Assembly (NCBI GenBank): GCA_038245195.1 | Contig: JBBRSU010000001.1 | Location: forward strand, 192,121 to 256,120 | Length of the DNA: 64,000 nt | Direction: 5' to 3' | From: Candidatus Saccharimonadales bacterium | GTDB taxonomy: Bacteria > Patescibacteriota > Saccharimonadia > Saccharimonadales > UBA10212 | Shown: piece after piece, positions 12,394-46,461 of the stretch | Layout of the letters: every line of letters starts with the position of its first letter | Position numbering within the stretch: the first letter of the stretch is position 1 | Position numbers and translations under genes: made by a program | Notes under the pieces: generated by a model | What the model saw: only the letters and a program-made list of their open reading frames with translations | Database searches by the model: none | What the model was told of the DNA's origin: nothing

Positions 12394-12410
12394 AAATCGA
12401 TTGGTAAAAA

Positions 12411-17562: not shown

Positions 17563-17571
17563 TCACCTCAA

Positions 17572-18189: not shown

Positions 18190-18201
18190 CAACTATAGTA
18201 T

Positions 18202-18507
18202 TTATTCCTGGAAAGGGTTAGTCCGGGCTTGCTCGAATAAAGTATGGATTTGAGTATTGCTCTGCTCTAGTGATTGAATGTGGCTGATGGCTTTTTGATC
18301 GACTTGGGGGATAACAAGTGGATTAGAGGCGGTCTTATCAGCTGCTGGCTCGGCTTTAGCAAATCCGCTAATTTTATACACTACAAAGATGTAAGCCAAA
18401 AGTACCACAATAACTGACCCAAAAGCCGCATGCCGACTGTATTTCTTAAGAAACTTACTGATCGACGATTTAAGATTGAGATTTTTAACGCTTAATTCTT
18501 TGCTCAT
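18202..18507 (-). CDS. small single-pass membrane protein at the distal end of the pilus operon
   Basis: One TM helix. 4-nt overlap with the upstream gene. Confidence 0.45.
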   Translation of the reverse strand: MSKELSVKNLNLKSSISKFLKKYSRHAAFGSVIVVLLAYIFVVYKISGFAKAEPAADKTASNPLVIPQVDQKAISHIQSLEQSNTQIHTLFEQARTNPFQE

Positions 18508-20901: not shown

Positions 20902-20962
20902 CTTGTTTATTTAGCTTATCCTTATCAGATTATATCAAGTCTTAATCTGTTATGACAGCTAA

Positions 20963-22393
20963 CTATAACCTGCGATAGCGCGTGGCATGCCAAGATAGAT
21001 TTATGGGGACTTTAGTTGAGTCGAAAGTGGAATCTAGTTTGAGATCAAAAGGTGTTCCGGGGTTAGTGGCAATGTAAATATTTTTGCCGGATAAGCCACC
21101 AATTGCCGGAGCTGCCCCAAACTTAGTTTTATCCAGGCAAACTCCATTATTGGCCAGAAAATACATGGCTGGAGCACTAGAATTACCACTGTTACCAAGA
21201 TAAATTGCACCACCCAACGGACACACGGCAACTTTGGATGCTGGGTCAGCTCCGTAAACAATTAAAATAATTGGGCCACTACCGGCGGCCGTATTAATAG
21301 AGTTAAAATTAACTGAACCTTCCACAAAAACGTACCTGGTTGTGCCTGTAGGGTTATAAAAGGTAGGGGTACAACCGCTGGCGGCACACAGGTTGGCCCG
21401 AAGATGAACGTTATCGGTGATATTGTATTGGCCGCTGGTTAAGGTTAAATCGCCAGAAGTGCCGCATGAGGCACTGACATTACTACCACTATCGGGGTAA
21501 TGAGTTTTTTTACTGTTGGCCACCGATGGTATCGAGCGCGGAAAAGCACCAGTGGTCCAGTCGTTGCAGTTGCCGGCACTGGTATAGCTGGCATCCATAT
21601 ACTGCGACCAAGGGATATAAGTTGATTGCACCTGGCTGATAGTATTTTGGTTTGCCGAAACATTAAAACCAGCATTGGTGGTGTTGCCCGGCGGACTTAT
21701 ACAGTTGTTATAAGCTAGCGTTAAATTGGTTTTAGTTTGCCCAGGCGTGCTAAAGGAAGCTGGTTTAACTAGATTGCCCGGTCCGCCAATCGAGCAATTG
21801 GTGGCACCGGTATTTTTCCCGCCAACTGTGATATTCTCGGCCACAATATTAGTGGTGTTTTTATTGGTGTTAATATAACCATTCACATATAGGTCTTTGG
21901 CATATAGGTTTTTAACACCGCTCTGGAGTTCAATTATGTTACGGCTAAGAATGCCGGTTACCGCCACAGAATCAGAGGTGTGCTGAGTAACTACTTCAAT
22001 TTTTCTGGTATAGCTCACGGTCGCAGAACTAGCTGGTGAATAGACTTTGCCGATCGCAGTAATAATTTTTTCGTTACTGGATGAGCCCGCCACGACAGTA
22101 GTTGAGTAGGTGGCTTTATATAAACTATTACTCAAAATAGTTATTTCAGTAGCACCGGTGCCAGCATAGGTGGCGGTAGGGTCGGCATTAAGATAGCCAA
22201 TGGCACTGTCGGCGCCCGATTCGGCCGCATATTGCGATTCTAGGGTTAAAACTCGGCCACGACCCCTGGATAAATTAGAAGTAGCATAAACAATTAAGGA
22301 CGATGCTAAAATCGACAAGAATAGAGTAATTACCAGAATACTTACAATAATCGAGCCGGATTCCTTGGAGATATTATTTGTATGTTTCCTCAT
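20963..22393 (-). CDS. large PilX-like pilus-associated protein (476 aa)
   Basis: N-terminal hydrophobic segment GSIIVSILVITLFLSILASS, then a Thr/Ser/Asn/Gly-rich, beta-rich body. Located in the minor pilin block. Confidence 0.5.
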   Translation of the reverse strand: MRKHTNNISKESGSIIVSILVITLFLSILASSLIVYATSNLSRGRGRVLTLESQYAAESGADSAIGYLNADPTATYAGTGATEITILSNSLYKATYSTTVVAGSSSNEKIITAIGKVYSPASSATVSYTRKIEVVTQHTSDSVAVTGILSRNIIELQSGVKNLYAKDLYVNGYINTNKNTTNIVAENITVGGKNTGATNCSIGGPGNLVKPASFSTPGQTKTNLTLAYNNCISPPGNTTNAGFNVSANQNTISQVQSTYIPWSQYMDASYTSAGNCNDWTTGAFPRSIPSVANSKKTHYPDSGSNVSASCGTSGDLTLTSGQYNITDNVHLRANLCAASGCTPTFYNPTGTTRYVFVEGSVNFNSINTAAGSGPIILIVYGADPASKVAVCPLGGAIYLGNSGNSSAPAMYFLANNGVCLDKTKFGAAPAIGGLSGKNIYIATNPGTPFDLKLDSTFDSTKVPINLSWHATRYRRL

Positions 22394-22395
22394 AG

Positions 22396-23169
22396 TTAAT
22401 TCCTTAAGGCGATTCTAATCACGGTACTGTTTTTGGTCGGGTTAGTGGCTGAAAAGCTTGGTTTTTTGGATAGATTTAGGGTTATCTCCAAAACTTCAAC
22501 AGCCGTAAAATCCGGCCCGGCATATTGCCCGGTGTTGGGGTCGATAATTGACGTATAATCAATTAAATTGCCGGTACGCGAAAAATATCGAGTGCTGACA
22601 GATCCTATGTCTGAAGCAATGGTTTTATCTAATGGGCATGATGCACTGATTTGAGCAGCCGGACAGCTGGTTTTGAGCCGGTTGCCGGCTGCGGAAGGGT
22701 TAGCTAGGCTGCGTTGCATAAGGCTTTTACCGGTACCGTCTAAGTACAAAATATACTCATCCTCGTACGGCAGAGTGCCATTCATGATGTATTGTTTGGA
22801 GCTATTCAAGCTGTAGTCACGAAAATAAATTAGGGGGGTGTAGCTACCACTGGCCGGTAGAACAGTAGTGCCGGGGATAGCATGGATTGGTAGCCAATAT
22901 TTGCCACCGGGGATTGACGGATCGGGAACTGCGGCGTTGGAATCTTGGATACTGTTCTGAATTATTAAGCCTACCGATGCCCCGATTTCATCTCGTAGAC
23001 TATCACCAGAATTGTAGCGCGTGACTAGGGTGTCATTATTCGCTGCTTGGGTGGCAGATGTTCGCCACAAATCAAAGGCAAAAACCATGATTACAATGGT
23101 GAGTAGGCTTGTAAAAATCATCGATATCAGCAACTCGGCGATAGTAAAGCCTGATTCAGTCGGCTTCAT
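22396..23169 (-). CDS. prepilin-type minor pilin (PilW-like)
   Basis: N-terminal cleavage/methylation motif SGFTIAELLISM. Confidence 0.65.
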   Translation of the reverse strand: MKPTESGFTIAELLISMIFTSLLTIVIMVFAFDLWRTSATQAANNDTLVTRYNSGDSLRDEIGASVGLIIQNSIQDSNAAVPDPSIPGGKYWLPIHAIPGTTVLPASGSYTPLIYFRDYSLNSSKQYIMNGTLPYEDEYILYLDGTGKSLMQRSLANPSAAGNRLKTSCPAAQISASCPLDKTIASDIGSVSTRYFSRTGNLIDYTSIIDPNTGQYAGPDFTAVEVLEITLNLSKKPSFSATNPTKNSTVIRIALRN

Positions 23170-23618
23170 TGTTGTCCAATTCCATTACGAGTGATGAGCA
23201 TACGTAGTTCCATGGGCGGAGCTGAAGTATTAAGATTGCTAACTTTGATGTCAATTACCTTACTATCCGGTACGCCTTGTAATGGATCAGCGTTAGGTAG
23301 TGAACTGGTTGGGGTGACAGTTAAGGTTGGAGTGTAGGTATAAACCGCACTGCCCCCATTTTCTCCGTAAAAAGTATTGTTGGGGTAGCAATTATTTGTG
23401 CCATTTACGATATCGTAATCTAGGGCCCGGTCGATTTCCGGGCAAGCACTTAAAACGGCGTACATATCGTTAAATTGTCGGGCTTGAGTATAATCGACAC
23501 TAACTGAGTGAAAGGCACTGTACATGGCAATAACAATAATCGGAAAAACTACGCAAGCTGTGGCAATCTCGACAATCGTAAATCCCTGTTGATTAAGTGG
23601 TTTTGAAAACAGTTTCAT
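23166..23618 (-). CDS. prepilin-type minor pilin (PilV-like)
   Basis: QGFTIVEIATA N-terminal motif. Confidence 0.6.
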   Translation of the reverse strand: MKLFSKPLNQQGFTIVEIATACVVFPIIVIAMYSAFHSVSVDYTQARQFNDMYAVLSACPEIDRALDYDIVNGTNNCYPNNTFYGENGGSAVYTYTPTLTVTPTSSLPNADPLQGVPDSKVIDIKVSNLNTSAPPMELRMLITRNGIGQQ

Positions 23619-23668
23619 GCTTATGTTAATTATATAGGCTTATTGATCAGAGGCTATAAAGATTAAAG

Positions 23669-23698
23669 AAAAACCCGGCTGTCTTTACCGGGTTTTTT
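23669..23698. terminator. bidirectional intrinsic terminator downstream of pilA
   Basis: AAAAACCCGG-loop-CCGGGTTTTTT. Confidence 0.75.
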
Positions 23699-23719
23699 CA
23701 GATTTTTTGTTAGCTGACT

Positions 23720-24169
23720 TTAGTTGTTAGATTGAACTGCGAAGGTTCCGCCCGCTTCTAGCGTGGCTGTCAAAACGTAGTTAGAACAGTCACCGTTAGC
23801 AGCGTTGTCGCAACCACTTGGTGTTAGGACATAACCATAGCAGCTGGAAGTTGTTGCAGCACACAATGATTGTGAACCAGCATCCTTAGGATCAGCCAAA
23901 GCCGCTGGGTCTAGGCCTTTCAAGTTAGCTGAGCGGAAAGTCGCATCATTCATGTTGGCCATGGTTGGGTACTTGGCGTTATTAGCCCAATAGGCTTCGA
24001 GCTGGCCCTGAACGGCCTTAATGTCGGTCTTGCGTTCCGTATCACGTGCTTTTTGTTGAATACCGTTATAGGTAACTATGACCAATGCAGCCAAGATACC
24101 GATTACTACGATAACAATCAAAAGCTCAACGATTGTAAAACCGCGATTGTTCTTTTTTAATGAGATCAT
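23720..24169 (-). CDS. pilA: major type IV pilin
   Basis: MISLKKNNRG|FTIVELLIVIVVIGILAA class III signal peptide with E+5. Four Cys in the C-terminal half. The ATG at 24169 is preferred over the GTG at 24181. Confidence 0.82.
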   Translation of the reverse strand: MISLKKNNRGFTIVELLIVIVVIGILAALVIVTYNGIQQKARDTERKTDIKAVQGQLEAYWANNAKYPTMANMNDATFRSANLKGLDPAALADPKDAGSQSLCAATTSSCYGYVLTPSGCDNAANGDCSNYVLTATLEAGGTFAVQSNN

Positions 24170-24294
24170 TCTATGACCCACCCTTCTTATTTTACTTTTT
24201 TTAAATTGGTTTTTAGGAACATTTACTGTTCTATGACTATGATTATAAGCATAAGCTTACTGTTGTCAACCCGTTTGCTTTCACTAGTGGAGGC

Positions 24295-25566
24295 CTAACC
24301 ACCAATGTTTTTAGACAGTGAAGCGATTGGTCCCATGACAGATGCCGCAATTAAGCCTACAAAACTACCCAAAACGATAATCATTATAGGCTCGATAATG
24401 CTAGTCATGCCATCTATCACAGCATCAACCTCTTCTTCATAAAAATCGGCAACCTTAACCAAAACTATGTCTATCTTGCCAGTTTCCTCGCCCACCGACA
24501 TCATCTGGCCGACTATCGGTGGGAAGAACTGGGCATCAAGCAGTTGCTTGCCAAGCGGCTGGCCATTTTTTACGGCTTCGGATACTTTGACTAGTTCTTT
24601 TTGAATGACAGTATTACCTACTGCTTTGCCAGTAACTTCCAGTGCATCAAGTACACTGACACCAGAGCCCATTAATGACGAGAATGTCCGGGCAAACCGA
24701 GCGATCGCCACTTTAGCCAGGATATTCCCAAGAATTGGAGTTTTTAATAGCAATAAATGCCACTTGAATCGGCCTTTAGGGGTATGGATATAACGCCTAA
24801 AATAGATTAAACCAATTACCATCAGTGCGATAATGAACACGGAATTTGGTAAAAGTTTAATAATTGGAATTTTATTAAGGATTGGTATGGAATTCATTAT
24901 GCTGTGGCCAATCAAGAAACTGCTGACGCCCAGCATGGCTCGGGTATAAACCGGCAGCTGAGCGTGTGGTCCGCCCAAATCTTTAAAAATTTTGCCAATT
25001 TTAGGTAGTATAAACAGCATAATTCCAAAGAATGCCACCACAGTGATGGTTAAAATCACAATTGGATAAGCCATGGCTGATCGAATCTTCTTACGAATCG
25101 TAGCGTCTTTCTCGACCTGTGTTGCTAGGCGTTTTAAAATTTCATCCAAAATCCCGCCAGATTCACCAGCCCGTACCATATTCACGTAAACATCACTAAA
25201 AGCACTTGGGTATTTGGCCATGCCATCGGCCAGTGGTGTGCCGCTTTCCACATCATGATTGACACCGGCAATTACTTCTTTGAAGTATTTATTTTCGAGC
25301 TGGCTGGATAAGGTATCTAGGGCCCGAGGCAGGGGCACTCCAGCACTAATCATGGTTGAAAGCTCCCGCGTAAAAATCACTAAATCTTTGAGCTTAACTT
25401 TGCCTTTGCCGCTCTTGGAGCCTCTGGATTTAGTCTCTTTAACACTAAGCGGTTTATGGCCTTGGTCGCGTAAACTTTTTACAGCCTCATCGCGAGTACC
25501 AGCGGTAATGGTTCCGCTAATACTCTGACCCTGGGCGTTTATGGCGCTATAAGCAAATTCAGCCAT
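24295..25566 (-). CDS. pilC: type IV pilus platform protein PilC (GspF family)
   Basis: Two T2SF repeats. 423-aa polytopic membrane protein. Confidence 0.9.
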   Translation of the reverse strand: MAEFAYSAINAQGQSISGTITAGTRDEAVKSLRDQGHKPLSVKETKSRGSKSGKGKVKLKDLVIFTRELSTMISAGVPLPRALDTLSSQLENKYFKEVIAGVNHDVESGTPLADGMAKYPSAFSDVYVNMVRAGESGGILDEILKRLATQVEKDATIRKKIRSAMAYPIVILTITVVAFFGIMLFILPKIGKIFKDLGGPHAQLPVYTRAMLGVSSFLIGHSIMNSIPILNKIPIIKLLPNSVFIIALMVIGLIYFRRYIHTPKGRFKWHLLLLKTPILGNILAKVAIARFARTFSSLMGSGVSVLDALEVTGKAVGNTVIQKELVKVSEAVKNGQPLGKQLLDAQFFPPIVGQMMSVGEETGKIDIVLVKVADFYEEEVDAVIDGMTSIIEPIMIIVLGSFVGLIAASVMGPIASLSKNIGG

Positions 25567-25567
25567 C

Positions 25568-27364
25568 TTAGTGTTCGTTGGTAACTCTCATTATTTCTTC
25601 AAGAGTAGTTTGGCCTTGCAAGGCTTTAACCAAACCATCGGTTTGCATAGTAACCATGCCTTCTTTAATGGCTTCCATCTGTATTTGGTCGCTGGTAGAG
25701 CCACTAATAATATGTTTTTGAATTGATTGAGTGATAGGCAGTACCTCATAAATTCCCAGCCGACCCTTGAACGAGGTGGCACCGGCTTCGCCTTTCATGC
25801 GCCAAAGTTTATTCATGGTACTGCCATTGGTTGAGGGTTCGGCGTGAGCAATCGCCTGTGTGCTGTTAAGCACATTTTCCATACCAGCCTGAATAAATTG
25901 CATCTCCAGTTTATGAATCCGAGCCATGTCATCAGGAGCGTTTAGGGAAAAAGCGGTTCGAATTCGTTTGATCGTCGGCTCGTCAGGGTGAAAAATTTCA
26001 GTGCTTTCTGGAACCAATTTACGGACTAAACGTTGGGCTACCACCGCTCTAACTGTGCTGGCAATCAAAAATGGCTCGATTCCCATATCTAGTAAGCGCG
26101 GCAGGCTGGTTGCGGCATTGTTGGTGTGCAGGGTTGAGAACACTAAGTGGCCAGTTAGGGCGGCCTGTACCGCCAAGTTTGCCGTTTCAGAATCGCGAAT
26201 CTCGCCAACCATAATAATATTGGGGTCCTGGCGTAGTAGAGCCCGCAACCCATTGGCGAAGCTCATGCCGGCAACGGGGTTCACCTGGACCTGGTTAACG
26301 CCCGGAATTTTATACTCTACCGGGTCCTCGACAGTACTTATATTTACAGACGGTAAATTTAAGCGACTTAAAATACTAAACAAGCTGGTACTTTTACCAG
26401 AACCAGTTGGGCCGGTGAATAAAATCATGCCATGCGGGCTGGTGATGGCGTGTTCGAGATACTCTAGATTTGACCCCCAAAAGCCCAACTCGCGTAGAGT
26501 ATTCGGTTTACTAGATTCGTTCAAAATACGCATAACTACCTTTTCGCCATCGGCAATTGGCAGAGTACTAACACGCAGGGCGTACTCGCCGGACCCCAGG
26601 GTTACTTTAAATCGCCCGTCTTGGGGTGCACGACGCTCATCAATTTTTAAATTCGAGAGAATTTTAATACGACTAACCAGCGCGGCGATGATTTTCTTAG
26701 GCAAGCGGTTAGTTTCTCGTAATTGGCCGTCAATTCGGTAACGAATTGCTACAAATTCTTCGCGCGGCTCGATATGGATGTCGCTAGCGCCTTGTTTGAT
26801 GGCGTATTCAATTAGTAGGTTCACGGTTTTGGCGACTGGACTGTCTTCGGCGACATCAGCTTCAGATACCTCTTCTTCGCTTGGAGTGCCATCACCTTCA
26901 GCAATTACTTCAGTTAATTCCGAGCCGATATTACTACGATATTGGTCAATCGCCGCTAGAATATTCGAGCGAGTGGCAATATAGACTTTAATATTCGAGC
27001 CCAACTGTTTCTGCAAAAAGCTAAAAGCCTGGACATCGTCAGGGTCCTCCATAGCCAGCCGGCGGGTTCCATTAGGCTCTATATCAAACAGAATGGCATT
27101 GTATTGCCTGGCAATATGCTCAGGGATTTGGCCAAAGACTTCTTTTCGCAAATTTTTTGGTACCAACTCAACAAACGGCACATCGATTTTGGAGGCATAG
27201 AGTTTAGTTAAGTCAGCTTCTGGTAAAACATTGTTTTTAATAACAATATCTTGGAGTGGTTTTTTCTCGGTCTTTTGCTGTTCGAGTAAGCTATGAAGTT
27301 GCTCATCATTAACTTTACGGCTTTCTTTGAGCAATCTTATAACTAGAGCGTCGCTAATCCGCAT
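25568..27364 (-). CDS. pilB: type IV pilus assembly ATPase PilB (GspE family)
   Basis: Walker A GPTGSGKSTSL, Asp/His boxes and an N-terminal T2SSE_N-like domain. Confidence 0.92.
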   Translation of the reverse strand: MRISDALVIRLLKESRKVNDEQLHSLLEQQKTEKKPLQDIVIKNNVLPEADLTKLYASKIDVPFVELVPKNLRKEVFGQIPEHIARQYNAILFDIEPNGTRRLAMEDPDDVQAFSFLQKQLGSNIKVYIATRSNILAAIDQYRSNIGSELTEVIAEGDGTPSEEEVSEADVAEDSPVAKTVNLLIEYAIKQGASDIHIEPREEFVAIRYRIDGQLRETNRLPKKIIAALVSRIKILSNLKIDERRAPQDGRFKVTLGSGEYALRVSTLPIADGEKVVMRILNESSKPNTLRELGFWGSNLEYLEHAITSPHGMILFTGPTGSGKSTSLFSILSRLNLPSVNISTVEDPVEYKIPGVNQVQVNPVAGMSFANGLRALLRQDPNIIMVGEIRDSETANLAVQAALTGHLVFSTLHTNNAATSLPRLLDMGIEPFLIASTVRAVVAQRLVRKLVPESTEIFHPDEPTIKRIRTAFSLNAPDDMARIHKLEMQFIQAGMENVLNSTQAIAHAEPSTNGSTMNKLWRMKGEAGATSFKGRLGIYEVLPITQSIQKHIISGSTSDQIQMEAIKEGMVTMQTDGLVKALQGQTTLEEIMRVTNEH

Positions 27365-27465
27365 ATGCTTAGTATAATCGAAGTCGACTTTTTAAGCTCC
27401 AGCAATTTTTAAACAGTTATTATTGATATAATATAATTAGCAAATTAGGGATTTTGGAGGACAAA

Positions 27466-28485
27466 ATGGCAGACAAGAAAGTTAAAGACGCCCCGGCACT
27501 CAGTGGTAAAAGCCAAGCACTACAGTTGGCGGTAGATCAAATAGAAAAACAATTTGGCAGGGGCTCAATTATGCGTTTGGGCGAATCAACCACAACCGAC
27601 GTCGAAACTATTCCAAGCGGCTCAATTAGCCTCGATTTAGCATTAGGCGGTGGTATACCCAAAGGCCGGATTGTAGAAATTTATGGCCCGGAAAGTTCCG
27701 GTAAAACCACGGTTTGTTTACACGCCGTAGCCGAAGTTCAAAAATCCGGGGGCACGGCCGCTTATATTGATGCCGAACACGCTTTAGATCCGGCTTACGC
27801 CAAACGCTTGGGAGTTGATACCGACAAGCTTTTAATTAGCCAACCCGATAGTGGTGAGCAAGCTTTAGAAATCCTAGAAACTTTGGTTCGCTCTAACGCG
27901 GTTGATATCGTCGTAATAGACTCAGTGGCGGCTTTGGTGCCCCAAGCCGAAATCGAAGGCGACATGGGCGACGCTCACATGGGTCTCCAGGCCCGTTTAA
28001 TGAGCCAGGCCTTACGTAAACTAACAGCAGTAATTAATCGCTCAAAAACTACTGTTATTTTTGTTAATCAATTACGCATGAAGATTGGCGTGATGTTTGG
28101 TAACCCCGAGACAACCACCGGCGGAAATGCTCTAAAATTTTACGCTTCGGTGCGGATGGATATCCGCCGGCAGGCTCAAATAAAGCAGGCTGATGTAGTG
28201 ATTGGTAATCATGTTCGAGTTAAAGTTGTCAAAAACAAGGTTGCTCCCCCCTTCCGAGAAGCCGAATTCGATATTATGTACAACCAAGGCATTAGTCGCG
28301 AGGGCGATGTAATCGATTTGGCCGTTACCTACGAAGTAGTTGATAAAGCCGGCGCTTGGTATGAATACAAAGGCGAAAAAATTGCCCAAGGCCGTGAAGC
28401 CGCCAAAAAATTCTTGGCCGAAAACCCCAAAGCTTTTGATGAAATCGCCAAGGCCACCGTCGCAGCTGCTAATAAACCCGAGTAA
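27466..28485 (+). CDS. recA: recombinase RecA
   Basis: SD GGAGG upstream of the ATG at 27466. [10 protein letters not shown] and ALKFYASVR. Confidence 0.97.
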
Positions 28486-28494
28486 ACTAAGCTC

Positions 28495-28950
28495 ATGACC
28501 GGACTCAATCATGTAGCGACAGGTGCGTTAGTTGCAGCGACTTTTAACAAGCCTTTAATCTCAATACCTGCGGCTCTGCTCAGCCATTTTGTTGCCGATG
28601 CTATTCCCCATTGGGACTACAAATTAAAACCGCACATTGCCCGACGCCAGGTAGTTATGCTGGCCGATCTGGTTCTCAGCCTAGCGCTTTTGCTTATCTT
28701 AGCTCTAACAGTAGACGCTAATCCGTATCTGGTAATTGCCGGCGGGTTGCTTGGGATATTGCCGGATACGATGTGGCTGAGGTTCTTCATTACCGGCCGG
28801 CCGGCAATTACGGGCAATCCTAAACGTTATATAAATCGACTCAGGCAATTCCATCACTGGATTCAATGGAGCGAAACAGCTAAAGGATTTTTTGTTGAAT
28901 TACTTTGGTTCCCGCTAATTGTGTGGCTGATTTACCAAGTCCACCATTAA
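28495..28950 (+). CDS. membrane protein, possibly YdjM/DUF457-like metal-dependent hydrolase
   Basis: LNHVATGALVA, HFVADAIPHWD and GILPDTMW. Lies between recA and recX. Confidence 0.35.
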   Translation: MTGLNHVATGALVAATFNKPLISIPAALLSHFVADAIPHWDYKLKPHIARRQVVMLADLVLSLALLLILALTVDANPYLVIAGGLLGILPDTMWLRFFITGRPAITGNPKRYINRLRQFHHWIQWSETAKGFFVELLWFPLIVWLIYQVHH

Positions 28951-28954
28951 GACT

Positions 28955-29572
28955 ATGAAAATTACTGCTATAAAGGTCCAGGTTAAAAACCCAGAGCGAG
29001 TCAGTATTTTCGTCGATAGTAAATACGAATTTTCATTGACCTTAGATGAGCTAATCAAACATAAGTTAAACAATCATGATGAATTAGATGTGTCGGCAGT
29101 CAAGAAATATAAAAAAATTTCGGCTGACGGGAAACTTCGGGCCAGAGCACTAGAGTGGCTAATTAACCGGCCGCACTCTGAGCACGAATTCCGTGATTAT
29201 TTGTATCGTAAAAAAGCCGAAACCGATCAAATCGACGGGCTTGTAGAAGAGTTTACTAATAAAGGCTATCTAAATAACGTCAAATTCGCTATTTGGTTTG
29301 CCGAACTCCAAGCTCGTCGTAATAAAAGCGACCGCCAAATTAAAGCCGAATTATATAAGAAGGGGGTCATCCGGGAAGTGGTAGACGAAACATTGCAGCA
29401 GGGAAGTGTTGATGAGCATGAAAGATTAATACAATTGATTCAAAAAAAGGCCCAACTTAGTCGTTATAAAAATGATCCTCAAAAATTAATGCAGTTTCTG
29501 GTTGGCCAAGGCTATAGCTGGCAGCTTGTAAAAGATACCATCGCTAATAACCCAGAGTATAAAAATACTTAA
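28955..29572 (+). CDS. recX: recombination regulator RecX
   Basis: Three-repeat helical protein located after recA. ARALEWL and EF..YL motifs. Confidence 0.8.
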   Translation: MKITAIKVQVKNPERVSIFVDSKYEFSLTLDELIKHKLNNHDELDVSAVKKYKKISADGKLRARALEWLINRPHSEHEFRDYLYRKKAETDQIDGLVEEFTNKGYLNNVKFAIWFAELQARRNKSDRQIKAELYKKGVIREVVDETLQQGSVDEHERLIQLIQKKAQLSRYKNDPQKLMQFLVGQGYSWQLVKDTIANNPEYKNT

Positions 29573-29586
29573 CAAGTTAAGTATTT
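29563..29586. repeat. palindrome family copy R (AAATACTTAAC-AA-GTTAAGTATTT); bidirectional terminator
   Basis: Overlaps the recX stop codon. Sits between convergent genes. Confidence 0.8.
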
Positions 29587-30106
29587 AAGCCGAAGCCACG
29601 GCGCCGGATAGTTCTTCAACATTTGCATTAATTTCGGTGCCCCGAACCAGAATATATCTATCGGTTACTTCCAAGATTTGGTCTCGGTCAATAATTAAGG
29701 TATCTTCGGAGCTGAAGATCTTGTGTAACGGCCTGGCGACATACAATTTTTGGACAAAAAAGCCGTCGTTATAACTAAAATCGCTCACCCTGCCCAATCT
29801 TTGGTGTTTTGTTCTAACCTGCTTATCAATTAACTGAAACTGAATTTCCAGAATTTCTTTATGCCGGACTAGATCCGCAGGATCGCTCAAGGCATCTTCG
29901 TCATTTACAGCCAGACCATTGGGCATGGTTTCGCGAACATCCTCGGCCAGCAACACTTGTTTCCGGCCGTTGGCACCAAGACACCACCAGCCCATTATTT
30001 TTAAATTATGAGGGTTAATTAAAGGAGTGTTAGCTATAGCTATCTGGTTTCCTGCCCGCAAACTCATAACTGGCTGGTTAATTAAGGACCCACTCAACTT
30101 CAACAT
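29585..30106 (-). CDS. PRC-barrel domain protein
   Basis: INQPVMSLRAGNQIA and VSDFSYNDGFFVQKLYV, consistent with two PRC-barrel-like halves. Confidence 0.55.
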   Translation of the reverse strand: MLKLSGSLINQPVMSLRAGNQIAIANTPLINPHNLKIMGWWCLGANGRKQVLLAEDVRETMPNGLAVNDEDALSDPADLVRHKEILEIQFQLIDKQVRTKHQRLGRVSDFSYNDGFFVQKLYVARPLHKIFSSEDTLIIDRDQILEVTDRYILVRGTEINANVEELSGAVASA

Positions 30107-30185
30107 ACTTGTTCATAGTATAATCCCGAAAAATTCAATTCGCTACTGCTTGCATAAACTTATTTTTGACCGATAATTGAATTAG

Positions 30186-31550
30186 ATGAGGAAATATTTT
30201 ATAAATATATTTCTTATGCTTTTGGGGGTTATATTGCCTTTCAAGTCGGTTTTGTCGGCCACTACTCCCCCGGTCCCAGCTGTGCCCCTAACTCTGGCCG
30301 TTTCCGAAATAAAAGTTACTGGTGATGAGTTTATAATTCTGCGTAACAATACTGGCAAAGACATAGCCGACCTTAGCGGTTATTGGCTAGATGATTTCAA
30401 TAGTAACCAACCGCTCGGCTCTGGTGTTAGTCGTTCTACTCAACAACTTCCGGCTACTAAGTTAGCCAATGGCCAAACCGTTTTGCTAAGTTCCAGCGGC
30501 ATGGCGGTTTGCGGTGCGGCAGTAGTTTCAAAACTTTCGGTTAGCTTAACCGATTCAGCCGGTTTTTTACAGGTCGTTCAAATATCACAGACTTCACTTG
30601 GTGTCATGCAGGTTCCGGTTGATTATGTATCTTGGAGCTCGGGCGCCGACTCGATAATTTCTAATTTGCCATCCACTACCAAAGACCCTAAAGCGGCTTA
30701 CTATAGATACGCCAATAGCACTGGTTACGCCTGGCAGTTAGCTGATCTAGATACGACTAACCCATGTCAGTTGAACGTCGCCGGTGGAGCCACAGTTAGC
30801 ACCGGTCTAACTCAGCCAATTTCGCCGGTGCCTAGCGTAGTTGGGATTAGTGGCAACAATAGTCTAAATATTCCCTCCGACGATGTCGGTTTGGCGGCCC
30901 CCCAAATTTCAGAAGTTCTGCCCAACCCGGCCTCGCCTCAAATTGATGCCGACGATGAATTTATCGAACTATATAACTCCAACAACAATAGCTTTAATCT
31001 GAGCGGTTTTATTTTGCAGGTTGGCACTACAACTGTTCATAAATATAGCTTCCCAGATGGTACTCACATGGATCCACACCAGTTTATGGCTTTTTACTCT
31101 TCAGATACTGGCTTGAGTTTGAGCAATACCGACGGACAAGTTAAATTGCTAGAACCCGGTGGGAATGTCTTGGGTCAGACCGATGAATATACCTCAGCTA
31201 AAGACGGCTACGCCTGGGTACCGGCCGACGGGCTGTGGCAATGGACCACCACACCAACCGCCAACGCCGCCAACATCATTACAACCCCACCGCTCAGCAA
31301 ATCAGCTGTCAAGTCTGCCACTACAACCAAATCCGCAAAATCAAGCAAAGCCAAAACTAAGGCAACGCCCATAAAAACGTCATCAAATAGCTTTTCCAGC
31401 GGAACTCCAGCTAGCAGCCTGCACCCGGCGATACTTGCCGGCATAGGCTCCTTAGCCGTAATATATGCCCTGTATGAGTACCGAAATGATTTGGCAAACC
31501 AACTCTACAAGTTCCGCAGAAACCGAGATTCTCGGCGAATTGCTGGGTAG
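30186..31550 (+). CDS. secreted, C-terminally anchored protein with two lamin-tail domains (LTD)
   Basis: Signal peptide, two LTD signatures (SEIKVTGDEFIILRNNTG and ISEVLPNP...DEFIELYNSNN), a Ser/Thr/Lys-rich stalk and a C-terminal TM helix. Confidence 0.7.
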   Translation: MRKYFINIFLMLLGVILPFKSVLSATTPPVPAVPLTLAVSEIKVTGDEFIILRNNTGKDIADLSGYWLDDFNSNQPLGSGVSRSTQQLPATKLANGQTVLLSSSGMAVCGAAVVSKLSVSLTDSAGFLQVVQISQTSLGVMQVPVDYVSWSSGADSIISNLPSTTKDPKAAYYRYANSTGYAWQLADLDTTNPCQLNVAGGATVSTGLTQPISPVPSVVGISGNNSLNIPSDDVGLAAPQISEVLPNPASPQIDADDEFIELYNSNNNSFNLSGFILQVGTTTVHKYSFPDGTHMDPHQFMAFYSSDTGLSLSNTDGQVKLLEPGGNVLGQTDEYTSAKDGYAWVPADGLWQWTTTPTANAANIITTPPLSKSAVKSATTTKSAKSSKAKTKATPIKTSSNSFSSGTPASSLHPAILAGIGSLAVIYALYEYRNDLANQLYKFRRNRDSRRIAG

Positions 31551-31968
31551 TCAGCTATCTGGTGGTGAGGTAATCGAACTGCGTTCCGATTTGGGTGGTG
31601 GTAAAACTACTTTCGTTACCGGTCTGGTTCGTGGTACCGGCAGCCAAGATCGAGTGTCTAGTCCAACCTTTACCCTCAACCGAATCTATAAAGCTAAAAA
31701 GTTTGATATCTATCATTATGATTTTTACAGGTTAAGCGAGCCGGGTATTCTAGAAGAACAGCTGGCCGAAGCTCAAACTCATAAACATGTTGTGGTGGTT
31801 GAGTGGGCCGGTATTGTCAAACAAACTCTTGCGAATAATCGAATTCTAATTGAATTTCAGCCGGTAGCCCAGAATCCCGATGTGCGACAAATTACTTTTA
31901 GATATCCGGACTCAAAACGAGCGATTATAACTTATTTAGAAACAAAATTTTCAGAGTTAAAGCCATGA
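31465..31968 (+). CDS. tsaE: tRNA t6A37 biosynthesis ATPase TsaE
   Basis: P-loop SDLGGGKTTF. Start uncertain (ATGs at 31465, 31474 and 31486, all overlapping the upstream gene). Confidence 0.8.
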   Translation: MPCMSTEMIWQTNSTSSAETEILGELLGSQLSGGEVIELRSDLGGGKTTFVTGLVRGTGSQDRVSSPTFTLNRIYKAKKFDIYHYDFYRLSEPGILEEQLAEAQTHKHVVVVEWAGIVKQTLANNRILIEFQPVAQNPDVRQITFRYPDSKRAIITYLETKFSELKP

Positions 31969-32357
31969 TAATCCTAGCCATAAGAACTGATAAACCTCAA
32001 GCCGAACTGTACATATATGATGATCACAGAAAACTGTCTGAGATAAAATGGGAAGCGCACTTAAAGTTGGCTGAAACTCTAAATGCCAAGATTAAAGAAA
32101 TACTTGATAGCTCAAGTATTTCATATGATGATCTTGAGGGCATTGCTGTATTTAGGGGTCCGGGTAGTTTTACTGGCTTGCGGATTGGAATCAGCGTGGC
32201 TAACGCCCTGGCCTATGCTCAAAATATACCGATTATCGCTAGAGGTGGCTCGGACTGGTTAGACCAAGTTATCAAGGATATGGCCCTTGGTAAAAACCAC
32301 AAAATTGCCCAGCCTGAATACGGTGCACTCCCTCATATCACCAAACCCCGCAAGTAG
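31965..32357 (+). CDS. tsaB: TsaB-like protein (short, N-terminal domain only)
   Basis: GPGSFTGLRIGISVANALA. 130 aa, compared with about 230 aa typically. Confidence 0.75.
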   Translation: MIILAIRTDKPQAELYIYDDHRKLSEIKWEAHLKLAETLNAKIKEILDSSSISYDDLEGIAVFRGPGSFTGLRIGISVANALAYAQNIPIIARGGSDWLDQVIKDMALGKNHKIAQPEYGALPHITKPRK

Positions 32358-32534
32358 TCCCAGACCTTAGATTATGATATTATTTAGGTGGATTTTGATG
32401 CAAGTTTTGGGATAAATCCGGTTAAATTTTACTAACATCTGAAAACCTAAACTGTTTGATACTTGCCTGATAATGAAGTGATAGTGATTCTGGCAGTCTA
32501 ACAGCCATAAGGTCTTCTGAAAGAGGAGGACGAC

Positions 32535-34049
32535 ATGATAATAGTTACTATTGTGCTAGCAATAGTTGGTGTTTTAGTTGGCGGAGGCGGCGGTGTAGCA
32601 GTTACTCGACGTCAGCAAAGCAAACTGGCCGACGAATCAAAAAAAGAATTACAAAAAGCCAAAAAAGAAGCCGCCGAGACTATTCGCAAAGCTGAGGAAG
32701 ACGCCGCTAGGCGGATTGAGGAAGTCCGCAAAGACGAGCAGAAGCGCCGAGGCGAGCTTAAAGACATCGAGCAACGGTTAATTAACCGAGAAGACAGTTT
32801 TGATAAAAAACTCGATGATTTAGATAAGCGCTCCGAAAACCTGCGAAAGGCTGAGGCCGAAGTAGAGGACTTAAAAAACGAGATTCGAGATATTCGCACC
32901 AAACAACAAGATAAGCTTGAAAAAATTGCCAAACTCAGCAAAGTCGATGCCGCTGAAAAACTAATGCAAATGACCGAGCGCGATATTAAGAACGACCTAC
33001 TAGGCCTAATTAATAAAGCTCAAAACGACGCTAGGGAAAACGCCGAAGAACAGGCCTCACTAATCTTGGTAACTACTATGGAGCGCATGGCCAGTGAAGT
33101 GACCTCAGAGCGAACCGTAACTGCCGTAAAACTGGAAGACGAAGAGATGAAAGGTCGGATTATTGGTAAGGAAGGCCGTAACATTCAATCCCTCCAACGA
33201 GCCACTGGCGTGGACATTCTGGTAGATGAAACACCCGGGATGATTATTCTATCCAGTTTTGACCCGGTGCGTCGTGAAGTCGCCCGCCAAGCCATGGAGA
33301 TGTTACTCAAAGATGGACGTGTTCACCCCGGCCGAATTGAAGAAGTCGTTGAAAAAGCCCAAAAACAAGTTCAAAAGGATGTTATTCGGGCCGGCGAAGA
33401 CGCTGCCCGAGAAGTTGGAATTGTCGGTGTGCCAAAAGAGATCCTACAGCTTATGGGTGAGCTAAAGTACCGCACTAGCTATGGTCAAAATGTTTTGAAG
33501 CACTCCACTGAAATGGCTCAGCTAGCCGGAGTGCTAGCCGAAGAACTTGGTGCGAACGTAAAAGTTGCCAAGTATGCTGCCTTGACCCACGACATGGGCA
33601 AGGCTTTAACGCATAAAGTCGAAGGCAAGCATCACCATATTACAGGCGAAATGCTCCGTAAATACGGAGCACCCGAAGAGGTAGCCTTAGCTGCTGAGCA
33701 ACACCACGATGATGTTGACGCCACTTCTATAGAAGCCGTGATTGTTCGGGTTGTGGATGCCATTAGCAGTGCCCGGCCAGGGGCTCGTAACATTAGTGCC
33801 GAAAACTTCGCCGAGCGCATGAAAGAATTAGAAAACACTGCCTTAGGCTTTGACGGGATCGAGAAGGCTTACGCCATTAGTGCCGGCCGTGAAGTTAGGG
33901 TGTTTGTTCAGCCCAAAGCCATCGACGATCTATCAGCTATTCGGCTGGCCCGCGATATTGCCAATAAGATTGAATCTACCATGCAGTATCCCGGAACAAT
34001 CAAGGTGAATGTTATCCGTGAAACCCGTGCCATCGAATTCGCTAAATAA
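32535..34049 (+). CDS. rny: ribonuclease Y
   Basis: N-terminal TM helix, coiled coil, KH domain (GRIIGKEGRNIQ) and HD domain (LTHDMGK). Confidence 0.95.
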   Translation: MIIVTIVLAIVGVLVGGGGGVAVTRRQQSKLADESKKELQKAKKEAAETIRKAEEDAARRIEEVRKDEQKRRGELKDIEQRLINREDSFDKKLDDLDKRSENLRKAEAEVEDLKNEIRDIRTKQQDKLEKIAKLSKVDAAEKLMQMTERDIKNDLLGLINKAQNDARENAEEQASLILVTTMERMASEVTSERTVTAVKLEDEEMKGRIIGKEGRNIQSLQRATGVDILVDETPGMIILSSFDPVRREVARQAMEMLLKDGRVHPGRIEEVVEKAQKQVQKDVIRAGEDAAREVGIVGVPKEILQLMGELKYRTSYGQNVLKHSTEMAQLAGVLAEELGANVKVAKYAALTHDMGKALTHKVEGKHHHITGEMLRKYGAPEEVALAAEQHHDDVDATSIEAVIVRVVDAISSARPGARNISAENFAERMKELENTALGFDGIEKAYAISAGREVRVFVQPKAIDDLSAIRLARDIANKIESTMQYPGTIKVNVIRETRAIEFAK

Positions 34050-34076
34050 AAAATACTTAACAAGTTAAGTATTTTT
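34049..34076. repeat. palindrome family copy Y (AAAAATACTTAAC-AA-GTTAAGTATTTTT); bidirectional terminator
   Basis: 13-bp arms, starting at the last base of the rny stop codon. Confidence 0.85.
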
Positions 34077-34078
34077 CG

Positions 34079-34160
34079 TGGTCGGGGTGAGAGGACTCGA
34101 GTTATTTTGCTCCTGCCCAAAATGCAAGCATTGGGCGAGGCGGCCAAGCAAGGAAAACTC
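34079..34160 (-). pseudogene. decayed tRNA-Pro copy (3' 22 nt intact, body degenerate)
   Basis: TGGTCGGGGTGAGAGGACTCGA is identical to 34248-34269. A TTTGGG anticodon-loop-like remnant is present, but no 5' acceptor strand. Confidence 0.5.
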
Positions 34161-34213
34161 AAACAGTCGTCGACTGTTCTCGCCTATCGGTTCTCGTTCT
34201 AACCCAAGCAATG

Positions 34214-34239
34214 AAAAACGTCCCACCAACAGGTGAGAC
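34214..34239 (-). terminator. intrinsic terminator of tRNA-Pro(TGG)
   Basis: Minus-strand reading GTCTCACC-TGTT-GGTGGGAC followed by GTTTTT. Confidence 0.7.
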
Positions 34240-34247
34240 GATTTTCA

Positions 34248-34324
34248 TGGTCGGGGTGAGAGGACTCGAACCTCCGACCCCCGCGTCCCAAACGCGGTGC
34301 GCTAGCCAACTGCGCTACACCCCG
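34248..34324 (-). tRNA. tRNA-Pro (TGG), CCA encoded
   Basis: CGGGGTG...CCGCG-TTTGGGA-CGCGG...CACCCCG-A-CCA. Confidence 0.92.
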
Positions 34325-34371
34325 GACTATGAACAGATTAAATTATAGCAAAAAACAGGGGTAGGTTATAG

Positions 34372-35181
34372 CTATTTTTTATTTCGGGCTTGGTGGTAAA
34401 GTACGGCTGTAAATATTGCATTGGCAACTTTAAAGCCTACCAAGCTAGATGCACCCAGTACAATGCTGACCACCCAGCCGACATTGCTAGCAGTTTGGCT
34501 CCTAAAAAAACCATGTTGAATCAGTTTTGGGGCAACAAAAATTAGAAAAACTAATAAGTACATGCTAATCTTTAGGACTAAACTCTCTCGCCAAGACTTA
34601 CCAAGAGTATCGATAGAAACCCTAACAGTCTCGCCCATCTTTTTGTTGGTTGTCAGTATGGCCGGGGCCGCCTGGGCCATGTGCATAGTTAGCGAGCTAC
34701 CCAACACTCCCAGCCAACCTCCGGGTAACTTTCGTCGCTGAGCATAGACGCTGAGCGGGAAGAAAAAAACCGAAATAATCGCAAAACGGGTAACTCGGAC
34801 AAAGTTTTTGCCAACTCGGGCTAATCCGTAAAATGGTTTTACGTCCCGGCCTTCTAGCTTGGCGATAACGCTGATTGACACGGCACAAGTAAAGTAAGCA
34901 GCTACTAGGGCACTGTAAAACGCCCAAAAACCAACTAAGCCTAAAACGGTATGGGCTTTGTTTGGGATATATGCACCAGTTTCCGAAAAGACTCGGCGGT
35001 ACCAACTAGCAAACAAGGTCGAGCTAACCAACGGGAAAGTAATTGATATAAAGACCGCGGCTATATAGGGGTAAGTAGCTATTTCTGGATGATTTTTAAG
35101 CACTCGAACAGTATCCTTTAGAACTATTAAAGCTCCACGGATGGACTCCAAGACAGAGCTAGGAAATTGCTTAAGCGACAT
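34372..35181 (-). CDS. polytopic membrane protein, unknown function
   Basis: 269 aa with at least six hydrophobic helices. Confidence 0.5.
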   Translation of the reverse strand: MSLKQFPSSVLESIRGALIVLKDTVRVLKNHPEIATYPYIAAVFISITFPLVSSTLFASWYRRVFSETGAYIPNKAHTVLGLVGFWAFYSALVAAYFTCAVSISVIAKLEGRDVKPFYGLARVGKNFVRVTRFAIISVFFFPLSVYAQRRKLPGGWLGVLGSSLTMHMAQAAPAILTTNKKMGETVRVSIDTLGKSWRESLVLKISMYLLVFLIFVAPKLIQHGFFRSQTASNVGWVVSIVLGASSLVGFKVANAIFTAVLYHQARNKK

Positions 35182-44910: not shown

Positions 44911-46461
44911 TTAGGCTTCGTGGATCACGGAGATGTGGGCACCGAGACTATTTAGGCGGTCGGCCAGATCTTCATAACCTCTGTTAATCGTATAAACGTT
45001 GCGCAACATGGAAATCCCAGAAGGGGCCAGCATGCCAATTAATAAGATCACCGCTGGGCGTAAACCGCTGGGAGCCACTATATCTGATGCCCGCCAGCGA
45101 GTTGGACCGTCTACAAAGATTCGGTGTGGGTCGGCTAGTTCGAGATTGACGCCAATTTTTTTCATCTCGGTATACATTAAGGCTCGGTCTTCATAGACCC
45201 AGTCGTGGATTAAGGTCCGACCTTTGGCCACAGCCACAATTGGCACAAAATACGGCAGGTTATCGATGTTGATGCCGGCTCCGCCGGTTAGTGGGTGAAT
45301 TTTCTCTTCTGGAGCTTTAAGCTCGCCGTTGTGCTTATGAACTCTAATATCAACTAGGTTTGTCTGGCCATTGTCAGCCTTATAAACCTCAGTCATATCA
45401 GTTTTGAGGCCCATCTTATTTAGCTTTAAAAGTTCTAGTTCCAAGAAGTCGATTGGAACCCGTTTGATGGTAAAAGACGAATTGGTGGTTATAGCTGCCG
45501 CTAAGAAGGTCATAGCTTCTACTGGGTCCTCGGCTGGTGAGTAGCTAATATTCTTCTTGATGATTCTTACACCCTTAATCTTCAGAGTATTAGTGCCTAT
45601 TCCATCGATCTTAACACCCAGTTTTTGCAAGAAATAACAGAGATCTCGGACCATATAATTGGCGCTAGCTTGTTTAATTACAGTTTCACCTTCGAAGCGA
45701 GCAGCCGCAATCAGGGCGTTTTCGGTGGCCACGTCACTCATCTCGTACATTACGACTGGCTCTTTTGGCAAGCTTCGCTTAACTGTCACATTGTAATGTC
45801 CACTGTGAGCCACAATTTTAACTCCAAATTCTTCCAAAGCGTAGATATGCGGCAGAATGGTTCTCCGCCCTAGCTCACAACCGCCAGCATAGGGGATTTG
45901 AAACTCCGAAAATTCGTGCATTAAGCTACCGGCTAGCATAATTACAATCCGCGTCTTGCGAGCGGCTTCTTTATTCAGTTTTGATAAATCTAGTGTCTTG
46001 GGGGGCCTAATCTCTAACTCATTGTTAGCCAGCCACTTAATTTGCACTCCAATACTGGATAATACTTCGATAATTCGATTAACTTCTTCAATCCGAGCGA
46101 CTCGTTTTAAGCGAGTAACTCCTTTGTTTAATAAACTGGCACATAAAATAGCCACAGCGGCGTTTTTGGAAGTTTTGAGCTCAATTTCGCCCTTGAGTTC
46201 ATGGCCGCCTTCGATTCGTAGATTGATAGCCCCACCACTTAGCGAAATAAGCTGTTTATTAAGTACGTCGCTAATGCGAGCAAGCGTATCCAAGCTAAGA
46301 TTTTGTTTGCCGTGTTCGATACGGTTAACGGCTGATTGGCTTGTACCTAGCTGTTTGGCAAAACCGGCCTGGGTTAAACCGCGTTCTTGCCGTATCTGGT
46401 AAATTAAACGGCCAATTTTTTGATTTGTTTCGTGCATTAACTCAAAAATAATATCATCCAA
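44911..46461 (-). CDS. murA: UDP-N-acetylglucosamine 1-carboxyvinyltransferase fused to an N-terminal XRE-type HTH domain
   Basis: Residues ~15-70 form an HTH (RGLTQAGFAKQLGTSQSAVNRIEHG). The MurA body starts at LRIEGGHELKGEIELKTSKNAA, with the active-site loop YAGGCELGRR. Start is TTG at 46461 or ATG 24 nt downstream. Confidence 0.88.
   Translation of the reverse strand: MDDIIFELMHETNQKIGRLIYQIRQERGLTQAGFAKQLGTSQSAVNRIEHGKQNLSLDTLARISDVLNKQLISLSGGAINLRIEGGHELKGEIELKTSKNAAVAILCASLLNKGVTRLKRVARIEEVNRIIEVLSSIGVQIKWLANNELEIRPPKTLDLSKLNKEAARKTRIVIMLAGSLMHEFSEFQIPYAGGCELGRRTILPHIYALEEFGVKIVAHSGHYNVTVKRSLPKEPVVMYEMSDVATENALIAAARFEGETVIKQASANYMVRDLCYFLQKLGVKIDGIGTNTLKIKGVRIIKKNISYSPAEDPVEAMTFLAAAITTNSSFTIKRVPIDFLELELLKLNKMGLKTDMTEVYKADNGQTNLVDIRVHKHNGELKAPEEKIHPLTGGAGINIDNLPYFVPIVAVAKGRTLIHDWVYEDRALMYTEMKKIGVNLELADPHRIFVDGPTRWRASDIVAPSGLRPAVILLIGMLAPSGISMLRNVYTINRGYEDLADRLNSLGAHISVIHEA

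Follow-up and report, generated by a model that had tools for sequence, protein, structure and literature searches.

A perfect 9-2-9 palindrome dispersed through Saccharimonadales genomes is a probable operator of a conserved MarR-family regulator

The 64,000-nucleotide stretch of contig JBBRSU010000001.1 analysed here (the window), from a Candidatus Saccharimonadales bacterium, contains four copies of a perfect 20-mer palindrome, ATACTTAAC-AW-GTTAAGTAT, at positions 9293–9312, 29565–29584, 34053–34072, and 53462–53481. Each copy is formed by two 9-nucleotide (nt) arms separated by a 2-nt spacer, which is AT in the first copy and AA in the other three. The positions given in the original prediction, an earlier annotation of the window, were those of the extended forms at 9292–9313, 29563–29586, 34049–34076, and 53461–53482, and were correct. 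That the recurrence exceeds chance, as was also claimed there, is supported by eight strand-matches in the window compared with 0.01 expected from 100 dinucleotide-preserving shuffles. The 9-mer arm is confined to the four palindromes, and a search of the window for degenerate copies and lone half-sites returned only 20-mers with at least four mismatches. The density of the palindrome in the window is one per 16 kb.

Two of the copies are positioned between convergent genes. Copy 2 (29563–29586; AAATACTTAAC-AA-GTTAAGTATTT) occupies the 12-nt gap between recX (28955–29572, + strand) and a gene encoding a 173-amino-acid (aa) protein (29585–30106, − strand). The copy overlaps the end of recX, as had been noted, and the TAA stop codon (29570–29572) is part of its left arm. 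The extended arms of copy 2 are 11 nt long (29563–29573 and 29576–29586). The orthologous junction of a related locus, L123 (loci from other genomes are designated by L numbers), contains the same palindrome with the spacer GT, and more distant relatives lack it. Copy 3 (34049–34076; AAAAATACTTAAC-AA-GTTAAGTATTTTT) has 13-nt arms (34049–34061 and 34064–34076) and is located between rny (32535–34049, + strand) and the convergent gene for tRNA-Pro (34248–34324, − strand). It begins at the final base of the rny stop codon and has 26 identical nucleotides in common with copy 2, both in agreement with the original prediction.

The other two copies are located within coding sequences, which had been overlooked when the two gene-end copies were emphasized as terminators. 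Copy 1 (9292–9313; AATACTTAAC-AT-GTTAAGTATT) belongs to the dus gene (8804–9754, + strand) and is translated as ILNMLSI, directly N-terminal of the conserved HGRT motif; the Dus orthologue of L069 has the site as in copy 1. Copy 4 (53461–53482; GATACTTAAC-AA-GTTAAGTATC), the arm of which is lengthened by one G-C pair, is within folD (53240–54046, + strand) and is translated as ILNKLSI. At this position, the palindrome is missing from the folD orthologues of L107 and L003, which encode other residues; in L003, a copy is found instead at the stop codon of the gene. Furthermore, a symmetric variant, GAAATACTTGA-TAGC-TCAAGTATTTC, is found at 32097–32122 within tsaB (31965–32357, + strand); L036, L053, and L060 have the perfect palindrome at the corresponding position of their TsaB genes. 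The change at positions 7 and 14 of the variant is compensated, with an A-T pair replaced by a G-C pair. The sequence ATACTTAGCAACTATAGTAT at 18182–18201, between the convergent open reading frames 17572–18189 (+ strand) and 18202–18507 (− strand), has four mismatches to the palindrome, with the outer ATACT..AGTAT intact; this convergent junction may hold a decayed copy.

The two copies at convergent junctions were originally proposed to be bidirectional intrinsic terminators. The arrangement of an A-run, a hairpin, and a T-run is well formed in copy 3, which has a stem of 12–13 bp with A5/T5 on both sides and is the most terminator-like of the four. It is weaker in copy 2, where a stem of 10–11 bp is followed by U3 (TTT) on the + side and by U5 on the − side. 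The stems of the two copies are AU-rich, with energies of about −8 to −10 kcal/mol, and the complete 61-nt folds have −10 to −12.8 kcal/mol. Copies 1 and 4 have no U-tract. A terminator role of the two intergenic copies is plausible, and copy 2 is probably a bidirectional terminator or a roadblock to transcription. The window also contains, at 12365–12394, a perfect palindrome with 14-nt arms, TAAAAAACTCCCAG-NN-CTGGGAGTTTTTTA, which has the properties of a textbook bidirectional terminator and an unrelated stem. Its succession of A-run, stem, 2-nt spacer, and T-run is the same as that of copy 3.

It was suggested in the original prediction that related genomes be examined for the palindrome. 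An exact-pattern scan of species-representative genomes identified it in at least 118 stretches, nearly all of which come from metagenome-assembled genomes (MAGs) of Candidatus Saccharibacteria/Saccharimonadales of many species. Matches in other phyla were few, approximately at the chance level for 18 specified bases. Some genomes contain several copies, and among the matches listed the number per genome ranges from 1 to at least 12 and differs widely between related genomes. The 776-kb contig JBEKOJ010000001.1 has at least eight copies, scattered from 10 to 671 kb. In a RecA-anchored metagenome scan, about 9 of the 80 loci were from Saccharibacteria, because RecA is too conserved to be selective, and these loci constitute an unbiased sample. 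The density in unbiased relatives is roughly one palindrome per 65–100 kb (about one per 65 kb for non-anchor sites). Only two matches, about the number expected by chance, were found in 2.9 million viral contigs, from which the motif is thus nearly absent. Both viral matches (L119, 5873–5892; L120, 419–438) are directly upstream of a GGAGG-type ribosome-binding site and a start codon, which is an operator-like position. Stretches of the L075, L020/L028, and L098 type, which are labelled Verrucomicrobiia, Babeliales, or Binatota, hold Saccharibacteria-type genes such as recX with the site, and are probably mis-binned contigs in public MAGs. We found no mention in the literature searched of the motif, nor of an uptake sequence, a terminator class, or parS in Saccharibacteria.

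The consensus of the 126 perfect copies among the matches listed is AA-ATACTTAAC-WW-GTTAAGTAT-TT. The conservation ends about 4 nt outside the palindrome and the flanks are unrelated, which defines a discrete dyad of 22–24 bp and rules out a larger repeat unit. The spacer measures 2 nt in 138 cases and has another length in 2; a spacer of 6 nt is present in L090 at 7305–7328 (ATACTTAAC-CAGTAG-GTTAAGTAT). There are about 12 truly lone arms, compared with 7–8 expected, in 1 Mb, and sub-words of the palindrome occur at their expected frequencies, showing neither avoidance nor enrichment of the restriction-modification type. Given the fixed spacer and the lack of enrichment of lone arms and sub-words, the unit is the whole dyad. 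No other recurrent palindromes were found.

Among the 125 perfect copies that could be classified, 50 are within genes, and 26, 34, and 9 are flanked by convergent, tandem, and divergent gene pairs, respectively. A bias towards gene ends, which the original prediction had proposed to check, applies to the non-genic copies, most of which abut the upstream stop codon (−8 to +27 nt) and frequently provide it as the TAA of their own arm, whereas approximately 40% of perfect copies (50/126) are within coding sequence. Orthologous intergenic copies are identical in the 18 arm bases and have fully diverged flanks. The extension of the dyad past the core is 3.03 at intergenic copies, compared with 1.41 ± 0.11 in shuffles, and 1.47 within genes, compared with 0.99 ± 0.13. 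It is of similar size in every intergenic class, and the added complementary bases are often A-runs and T-runs that contribute up to 10 extra pairs. Compensated symmetric variants, such as that in tsaB of the window (32100), also occur in L005, L104, L068, L079, and L205.

Clustering of the genes beside the copies identified, in several species, a gene for a protein of about 150 aa that starts just downstream of the palindrome. The protein belongs to the MarR family (it matches Pfam MarR and MarR_2) and has full-length similarity to the solved structures of MepR, Rv2887, CouR, and HosA, with E-values of about 1e-5 to 1e-8. In 120 orthologue clusters, the recognition helix of the protein, LGQTEASISRQI, is conserved with at least 95% invariance, and an invariant recognition helix matches an invariant operator. 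The palindrome is positioned 19–54 nt upstream of the start codon in 13 of the 13 MarR genes examined, which favours the suggestion in the original prediction that it is a protein-binding site. Seven of these genes are in loci that were retrieved using the palindrome and have a copy 24–54 nt upstream; in three of the seven, this copy contains one mismatch and is different from the one used to fetch the locus. The remaining six orthologues were obtained by a protein search and selected solely for long contigs, independently of the palindrome. All six have the palindrome, with 0–2 mismatches, ending 19–38 nt before the ATG.

The palindrome is preceded by ksgA and followed by marR, after which there is a transporter gene of the major facilitator superfamily (MFS) in four of the six unbiased loci. 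Even where the nearest upstream gene is distant, at 228 nt in L207 and 757 nt in L027, the palindrome still adjoins marR. Therefore, the site is part of the marR promoter rather than of the 3' end of ksgA. Some of the operators carry an A-to-G variant in one arm, which produces the sequence TTGAC; in seven out of seven cases it is in the upstream arm and oriented towards marR, and it is followed after 17–18 nt by a TAnnnT hexamer. The orientation and spacing of the two elements indicate that the operator covers the −35 element and the spacer of the promoter. In L002 (3338), L034 (5308), and L209 (15002), the palindrome is located 5–8 nt before, or overlaps, the start codon of a small Zincin_1 gene (HExxH motif), which is a candidate member of the regulon of the MarR protein.

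The arrangement resembles that of marO of Escherichia coli (NC_000913, upstream of marR), which contains the sequences ATACTTGCC-TG-GGCAATAT and TTACTTGCC-AG-GGCAACTAA in the same 9-2-9 layout. The half-sites ATACTTGCC and TTACTTGCC are identical to ATACTTAAC in seven of nine bases; the inner core is TTGCC..GGCAA in marO and TTAAC..GTTAA in Saccharimonadales. In both cases, the palindrome is in the regulator's own promoter, at or over the −35 and −10 elements, upstream of marR and an efflux-related operon. We take the two E. coli sequences to be MarR sites I and II, an assignment reportedly made by Martin and Rosner in 1995. Unlike in marO, the Saccharimonadales dyad is perfect, has the −35 element within its upstream arm, and recurs at tens of sites away from promoters, among them coding sequences and the ends of convergent genes; to our knowledge, such repetition has not been described for marO. 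Additionally, the locus is similar to the MarR-efflux pairs of the MepR/mepRA type, in which a full-length homologue with the MarR fold is followed by a transporter gene and has a palindromic operator in its own promoter. The differences are the low sequence identity and a regulon that is apparently much larger and mostly off promoters.

We conclude that the palindrome is probably, with a probability of about 0.68, the operator of a conserved Saccharimonadales MarR-family winged-helix homodimer, with extra copies in the genome. Its 9-2-9 layout, lengthened to 11-2-11 by the A/T flanks, is that of a MarR operator, and each subunit of the homodimer would bind one half-site of 9–11 bp across the fixed 2-bp spacer. 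The palindrome family, its conservation, its association with marR, its overlap with the promoter, and the synonymous constraint described below are observed, and from them we infer that MarR itself is the protein that binds. The primary site would be the promoter of the regulator's own operon, in the order ksgA, palindrome, marR, and MFS transporter, with the −35 hexamer (TTAACT or TTGACG) in the upstream arm and the TAnnnT −10 hexamer 17–18 nt further on. Because the operator is placed over the promoter, the bound dimer should shut off marR and the transporter gene and, as is known for other members of the MarR family, would keep them silent until a ligand releases it. Point substitution would have created the same high-affinity sequence elsewhere, at convergent and tandem gene ends and in permissive 'IL..L' helices encoded by recX, valS, the DEAD-box helicase gene, tsaB, apbE, the rsuA-like gene, dus, and folD. 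Copies made in this manner would be retained by selection at the nucleotide level, and all four copies in the window would belong to this non-promoter class.

The copies within genes provide evidence of such selection. The palindrome has one open reading frame on either strand and the other two frames contain TAA, so all within-gene copies are translated as I-L-N-x-L-S-I. They recur at orthologous positions in RecX (11 species), valyl-tRNA synthetase (ValRS; 9 species, host gene of about 870 aa), an ApbE-like protein (5), TsaB (3), an RsuA-like protein (3), Dus (2), and others. TsaB and FolD orthologues that lack the palindrome have equal lengths and different residues at the site, which indicates that the within-gene copies arose by substitution and not by insertion. 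The residues ILNKLS are present at this position in most RecX homologues of the clade. In five recX genes that were found independently of the palindrome (L121, L201–L204), the corresponding DNA is ATACTTAACAAGTTAAGT with 1–2 outer mismatches, and the pairwise codon identity is 52/60 at ILNKLS, compared with 258/720 at other columns of identical residues. Similarly, the DEAD-box helicase gene from three unbiased loci has a codon identity of 10/10 at the site and of 180/474 elsewhere. The recX and DEAD-box helicase sites are under strong synonymous-codon constraint, that is, under selection at the nucleotide level. Moreover, RecX proteins with identities as low as about 42% keep the identical palindrome at the orthologous site.

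The positions of the copies change within the neighbourhoods in which they occur. In the window, recX lacks the internal site and carries one at the stop codon, a position also occupied in the close relative L123; more distant relatives have neither of the two. Two species have a perfect copy at the junction of tsaE and tsaB, where three others retain just the inner core CTTAAC-AT-GTTAA (the junction sites are L202 13054, L203 13829, L204 13136, L019 3459, and L082 792), and in other species a copy is found about 140 nt within tsaB rather than at the junction.

These observations bear on the suggestion in the original prediction that the palindrome is a small mobile element of the REP, REPIN, or MITE type. 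Such an element would transpose, for example with the help of a Y1 transposase of the RAYT type, and insert mainly at the ends of genes. Such an origin would be in line with the wide differences in copy number between related genomes (1 to at least 12 among the matches listed), the many copies at 3' gene ends and convergent junctions, and the conservation of both sequence and structure that is characteristic of REPs. However, the dyad has no conserved flanks or terminal features, the within-gene copies replace residues without adding length, and 40% of the copies are in genes, whereas a REP is by definition located outside them. The retention of the identical sequence at orthologous sites across the whole order fits selection at the level of the host and not recent mobility. 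Clustering of the neighbouring genes showed no recurrent family besides marR and the host genes, and no transposase was noticed beside the copies, although a whole-genome search for RAYT was not made. We consider a mobile origin highly improbable. The REP/BIME elements and the TRIT elements of Mycobacterium tuberculosis, for which roles in termination or mRNA stabilization have been proposed, are likewise short hairpin-forming repeats whose sequence is conserved and which are most frequent between convergent genes. They are extragenic, imperfect, specific to a species or genus, and often linked to RAYT, whereas the palindrome described here is perfect, 40% within genes, distributed over an order, and tied to a MarR promoter.

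The arrangement at gene ends raises the alternative that the element acts as a hairpin in RNA or single-stranded DNA. The copies would then be bidirectional terminators or stabilizers of mRNA 3' ends, with a stem sequence fixed by a hairpin-binding factor, and the copy before marR would be the terminator of ksgA. The positions of the non-genic sites close to upstream stop codons, often with the stop within the arm, agree with this explanation, as do the A-run and T-run flanks, the arm extensions far above those of shuffles, and the compensated double changes that retain the perfect dyad. The terminator at 12365–12394 in the window has the same design, and in L111 a copy immediately follows a tRNA gene. 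However, the stems of intrinsic terminators normally covary freely, whereas here the 18 arm positions are identical at orthologous and non-orthologous sites, with few compensated variants, even where the orthologous flanks have diverged. The fixed 2-nt spacer is a poor loop and the AU-rich stems are weak. Furthermore, T-runs are not in directional excess over A-runs at one-sided 3' ends, and imperfect copies show no preference for G.U pairs in the sense RNA (5 G.U versus 13 A.C). The 40% of copies in coding sequence under synonymous constraint, and the marR copies, whose spacing to marR is maintained when ksgA is remote and which carry an oriented −35 element, are also difficult to reconcile with a hairpin. 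An Rfam search matched only tRNAs and no family for the palindrome. A purely hairpin-based function is therefore unlikely.

The non-promoter copies can be compared with sites of other repressors. In intragenic and auxiliary operators, such as lac O2 in lacZ, the cre sites of CcpA, and the CodY sites within open reading frames, the bound protein can halt the elongating RNA polymerase. The copies described here are likewise putative high-affinity repressor sites in coding sequences or away from promoters, and may act as roadblocks; it would be uncommon for such sites to be so numerous, to be conserved across species, and to be employed at the ends of convergent genes. The copies at convergent ends probably halt transcription from both sides by means of a hairpin, a roadblock of bound protein, or both. 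In the two such copies of the window, composed of the site, an A-run, and a T-run, a weak hairpin terminator would be helped or replaced by the bound protein. The conserved within-gene copies may be roadblock or titration sites.

The window encodes ComEC and a type IV pilus, as stated in the original prediction and confirmed by family searches, and a signal resembling a DNA uptake sequence had been proposed partly on this basis. According to this explanation, the palindrome would be a tag of self-DNA for the competence machinery, spread by biased uptake and recombination. Saccharibacteria are naturally transformable (PMC10633639). The window encodes the pilus proteins PilB and PilC, together with RecA and RecX. 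As in the uptake sequences of Neisseria and Pasteurellaceae (DUS/USS), an identical sequence is reused in terminator-like hairpins, and copies born by substitution in conserved genes recur at orthologous positions, in a competent clade. The palindrome is common to many species and nearly absent from viral contigs. DUS/USS occur about once per kb as single copies on both strands, whereas the density of the palindrome is 16- to 100-fold lower, with one copy per 16 kb in the window and roughly one per 65–100 kb in unbiased relatives. Lone arms are not enriched (about 12 compared with about 8 expected) and the 2-nt spacer is strictly fixed. The invariant placement in 13 of 13 marR promoters with an oriented −35 element has no place in this model, and no uptake sequence in Saccharibacteria is reported in the literature searched. 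These comparisons do not support the proposal, and an uptake signal is very improbable.

A chromosome-organizing site similar to parS, NBS, SBS, or matS, bound by a dimeric nucleoid protein and functioning in segregation, nucleoid occlusion, or domain structure, was also considered. In favour of such a role, the repeat is a palindromic site of 16–24 bp present in both coding and non-coding DNA, and its density of one per 16–100 kb is similar to that of NBS and SBS. The shifts in position within persistent neighbourhoods (inside recX or at its stop codon, inside folD or at its stop codon, at the tsaE/tsaB junction or inside tsaB) fit this explanation as well. However, the palindrome has no likeness to the canonical parS, TGTTNCACGTGAAACA, no parS was found within two mismatches in about 1 Mb, and the copies on JBEKOJ010000001.1 are unclustered. 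The invariant position in the marR promoter and the resemblance to the half-sites of marO point instead to a MarR operator, and we assign a very low probability to a dedicated chromosome site. If the MarR protein acted as a nucleoid-associated protein, the two explanations would merge. The crossover site of a serine recombinase with a 2-bp core was rejected, since a recombinase is found nearby only in L203, at a tRNA gene and unrelated to the palindrome, and since recombination between the direct copies in the window would delete essential genes. Genes for large serine recombinases (Resolvase/Recombinase) are present in L203 (16800–18694) and L205 (12021–13601), neither of them related to the palindrome. 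The L203 gene is beside a tRNA-like sequence, followed by an Xre helix-turn-helix (HTH) gene and a DUF4352 gene, and this region is probably a small integrated element.

Several points weigh against the palindrome being a MarR operator. The role of MarR is derived from association and from the behaviour of its family, and a different factor that simply regulates marR could occupy the site instead. A search for the ksgA-marR locus showed that it is absent from the window, in which none of the four copies is of the promoter type (two are within dus and folD and two at convergent junctions). Most of the 125 classified copies, with 50 in genes, are at sites unusual for a MarR regulon, and the copy numbers per genome are lower bounds. 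A −10 element at promoter spacing accompanies only 10 of 244 sites in general; the non-promoter copies are thus not promoters and are unexplained by classical repression, and a promoter role for all copies was rejected. Finally, the excess of dyad symmetry beyond the core and the compensated variants are not predicted by the footprint of a homodimer alone. They suggest an added hairpin or pairing constraint, or template-switch mutation that corrects palindromes.

MarR operators as such are known, and the novelty lies in a perfect operator, found throughout a clade, that is dispersed at gene ends and within essential genes. It is conceivable, although doubtful, that the MarR protein is a genome-wide switch in these ultrasmall epibionts, in which one ligand, for example a host-derived signal, would control both roadblock terminators at convergent junctions and operators that throttle genes from within their coding sequences. 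Compact bidirectional roadblock terminators would suit genomes that have no room for long ones, and operators in recX, valS, the DEAD-box helicase gene, ksgA, tsaB, dus, the rsuA-like gene, and folD would throttle recombination, translation, and RNA-modification genes. Knowledge of how Saccharibacteria and other Patescibacteria regulate their genes is almost nonexistent, and transcription factors are very scarce in these bacteria. The palindrome and the MarR protein form a testable candidate regulator-operator pair conserved across an order, with a list of target sites. If confirmed, operators selected within essential genes and at convergent ends would imply the use of MarR as a roadblock or terminator, or a global role in reduced genomes. 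In genetic tools for Saccharibacteria, the palindrome might also serve as a compact bidirectional terminator and as an inducible operator.

The gene order of the region 17500–35000 of the window is strongly conserved across Saccharimonadales (compared with L201–L204). It comprises pilM to pilC, pilB, a divergent recA, a NUDIX gene or a gene without assignment, recX, the convergent gene for a protein of about 172 aa, a gene for an LTD-domain protein, tsaE, tsaB, rny, and ymdB. A 4-nt overlap between recX and the convergent gene is seen in several species. Family searches with the neighbouring proteins p151, p173, and p269 returned no match. Elsewhere in the window, at 44911–46461 (− strand), a 516-aa protein is encoded in which an N-terminal Xre-type HTH domain (HTH_3) is joined to a domain similar to EPSP synthase and MurA; it is unusual for an enzyme to be fused to a DNA-binding domain in this way. 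In one Saccharimonadales MAG (L208, 4589–7825), the gene for the UvrD/PcrA helicase encodes 1078 aa and contains an intein (Intein_splicing), whereas its orthologues have about 715 aa.

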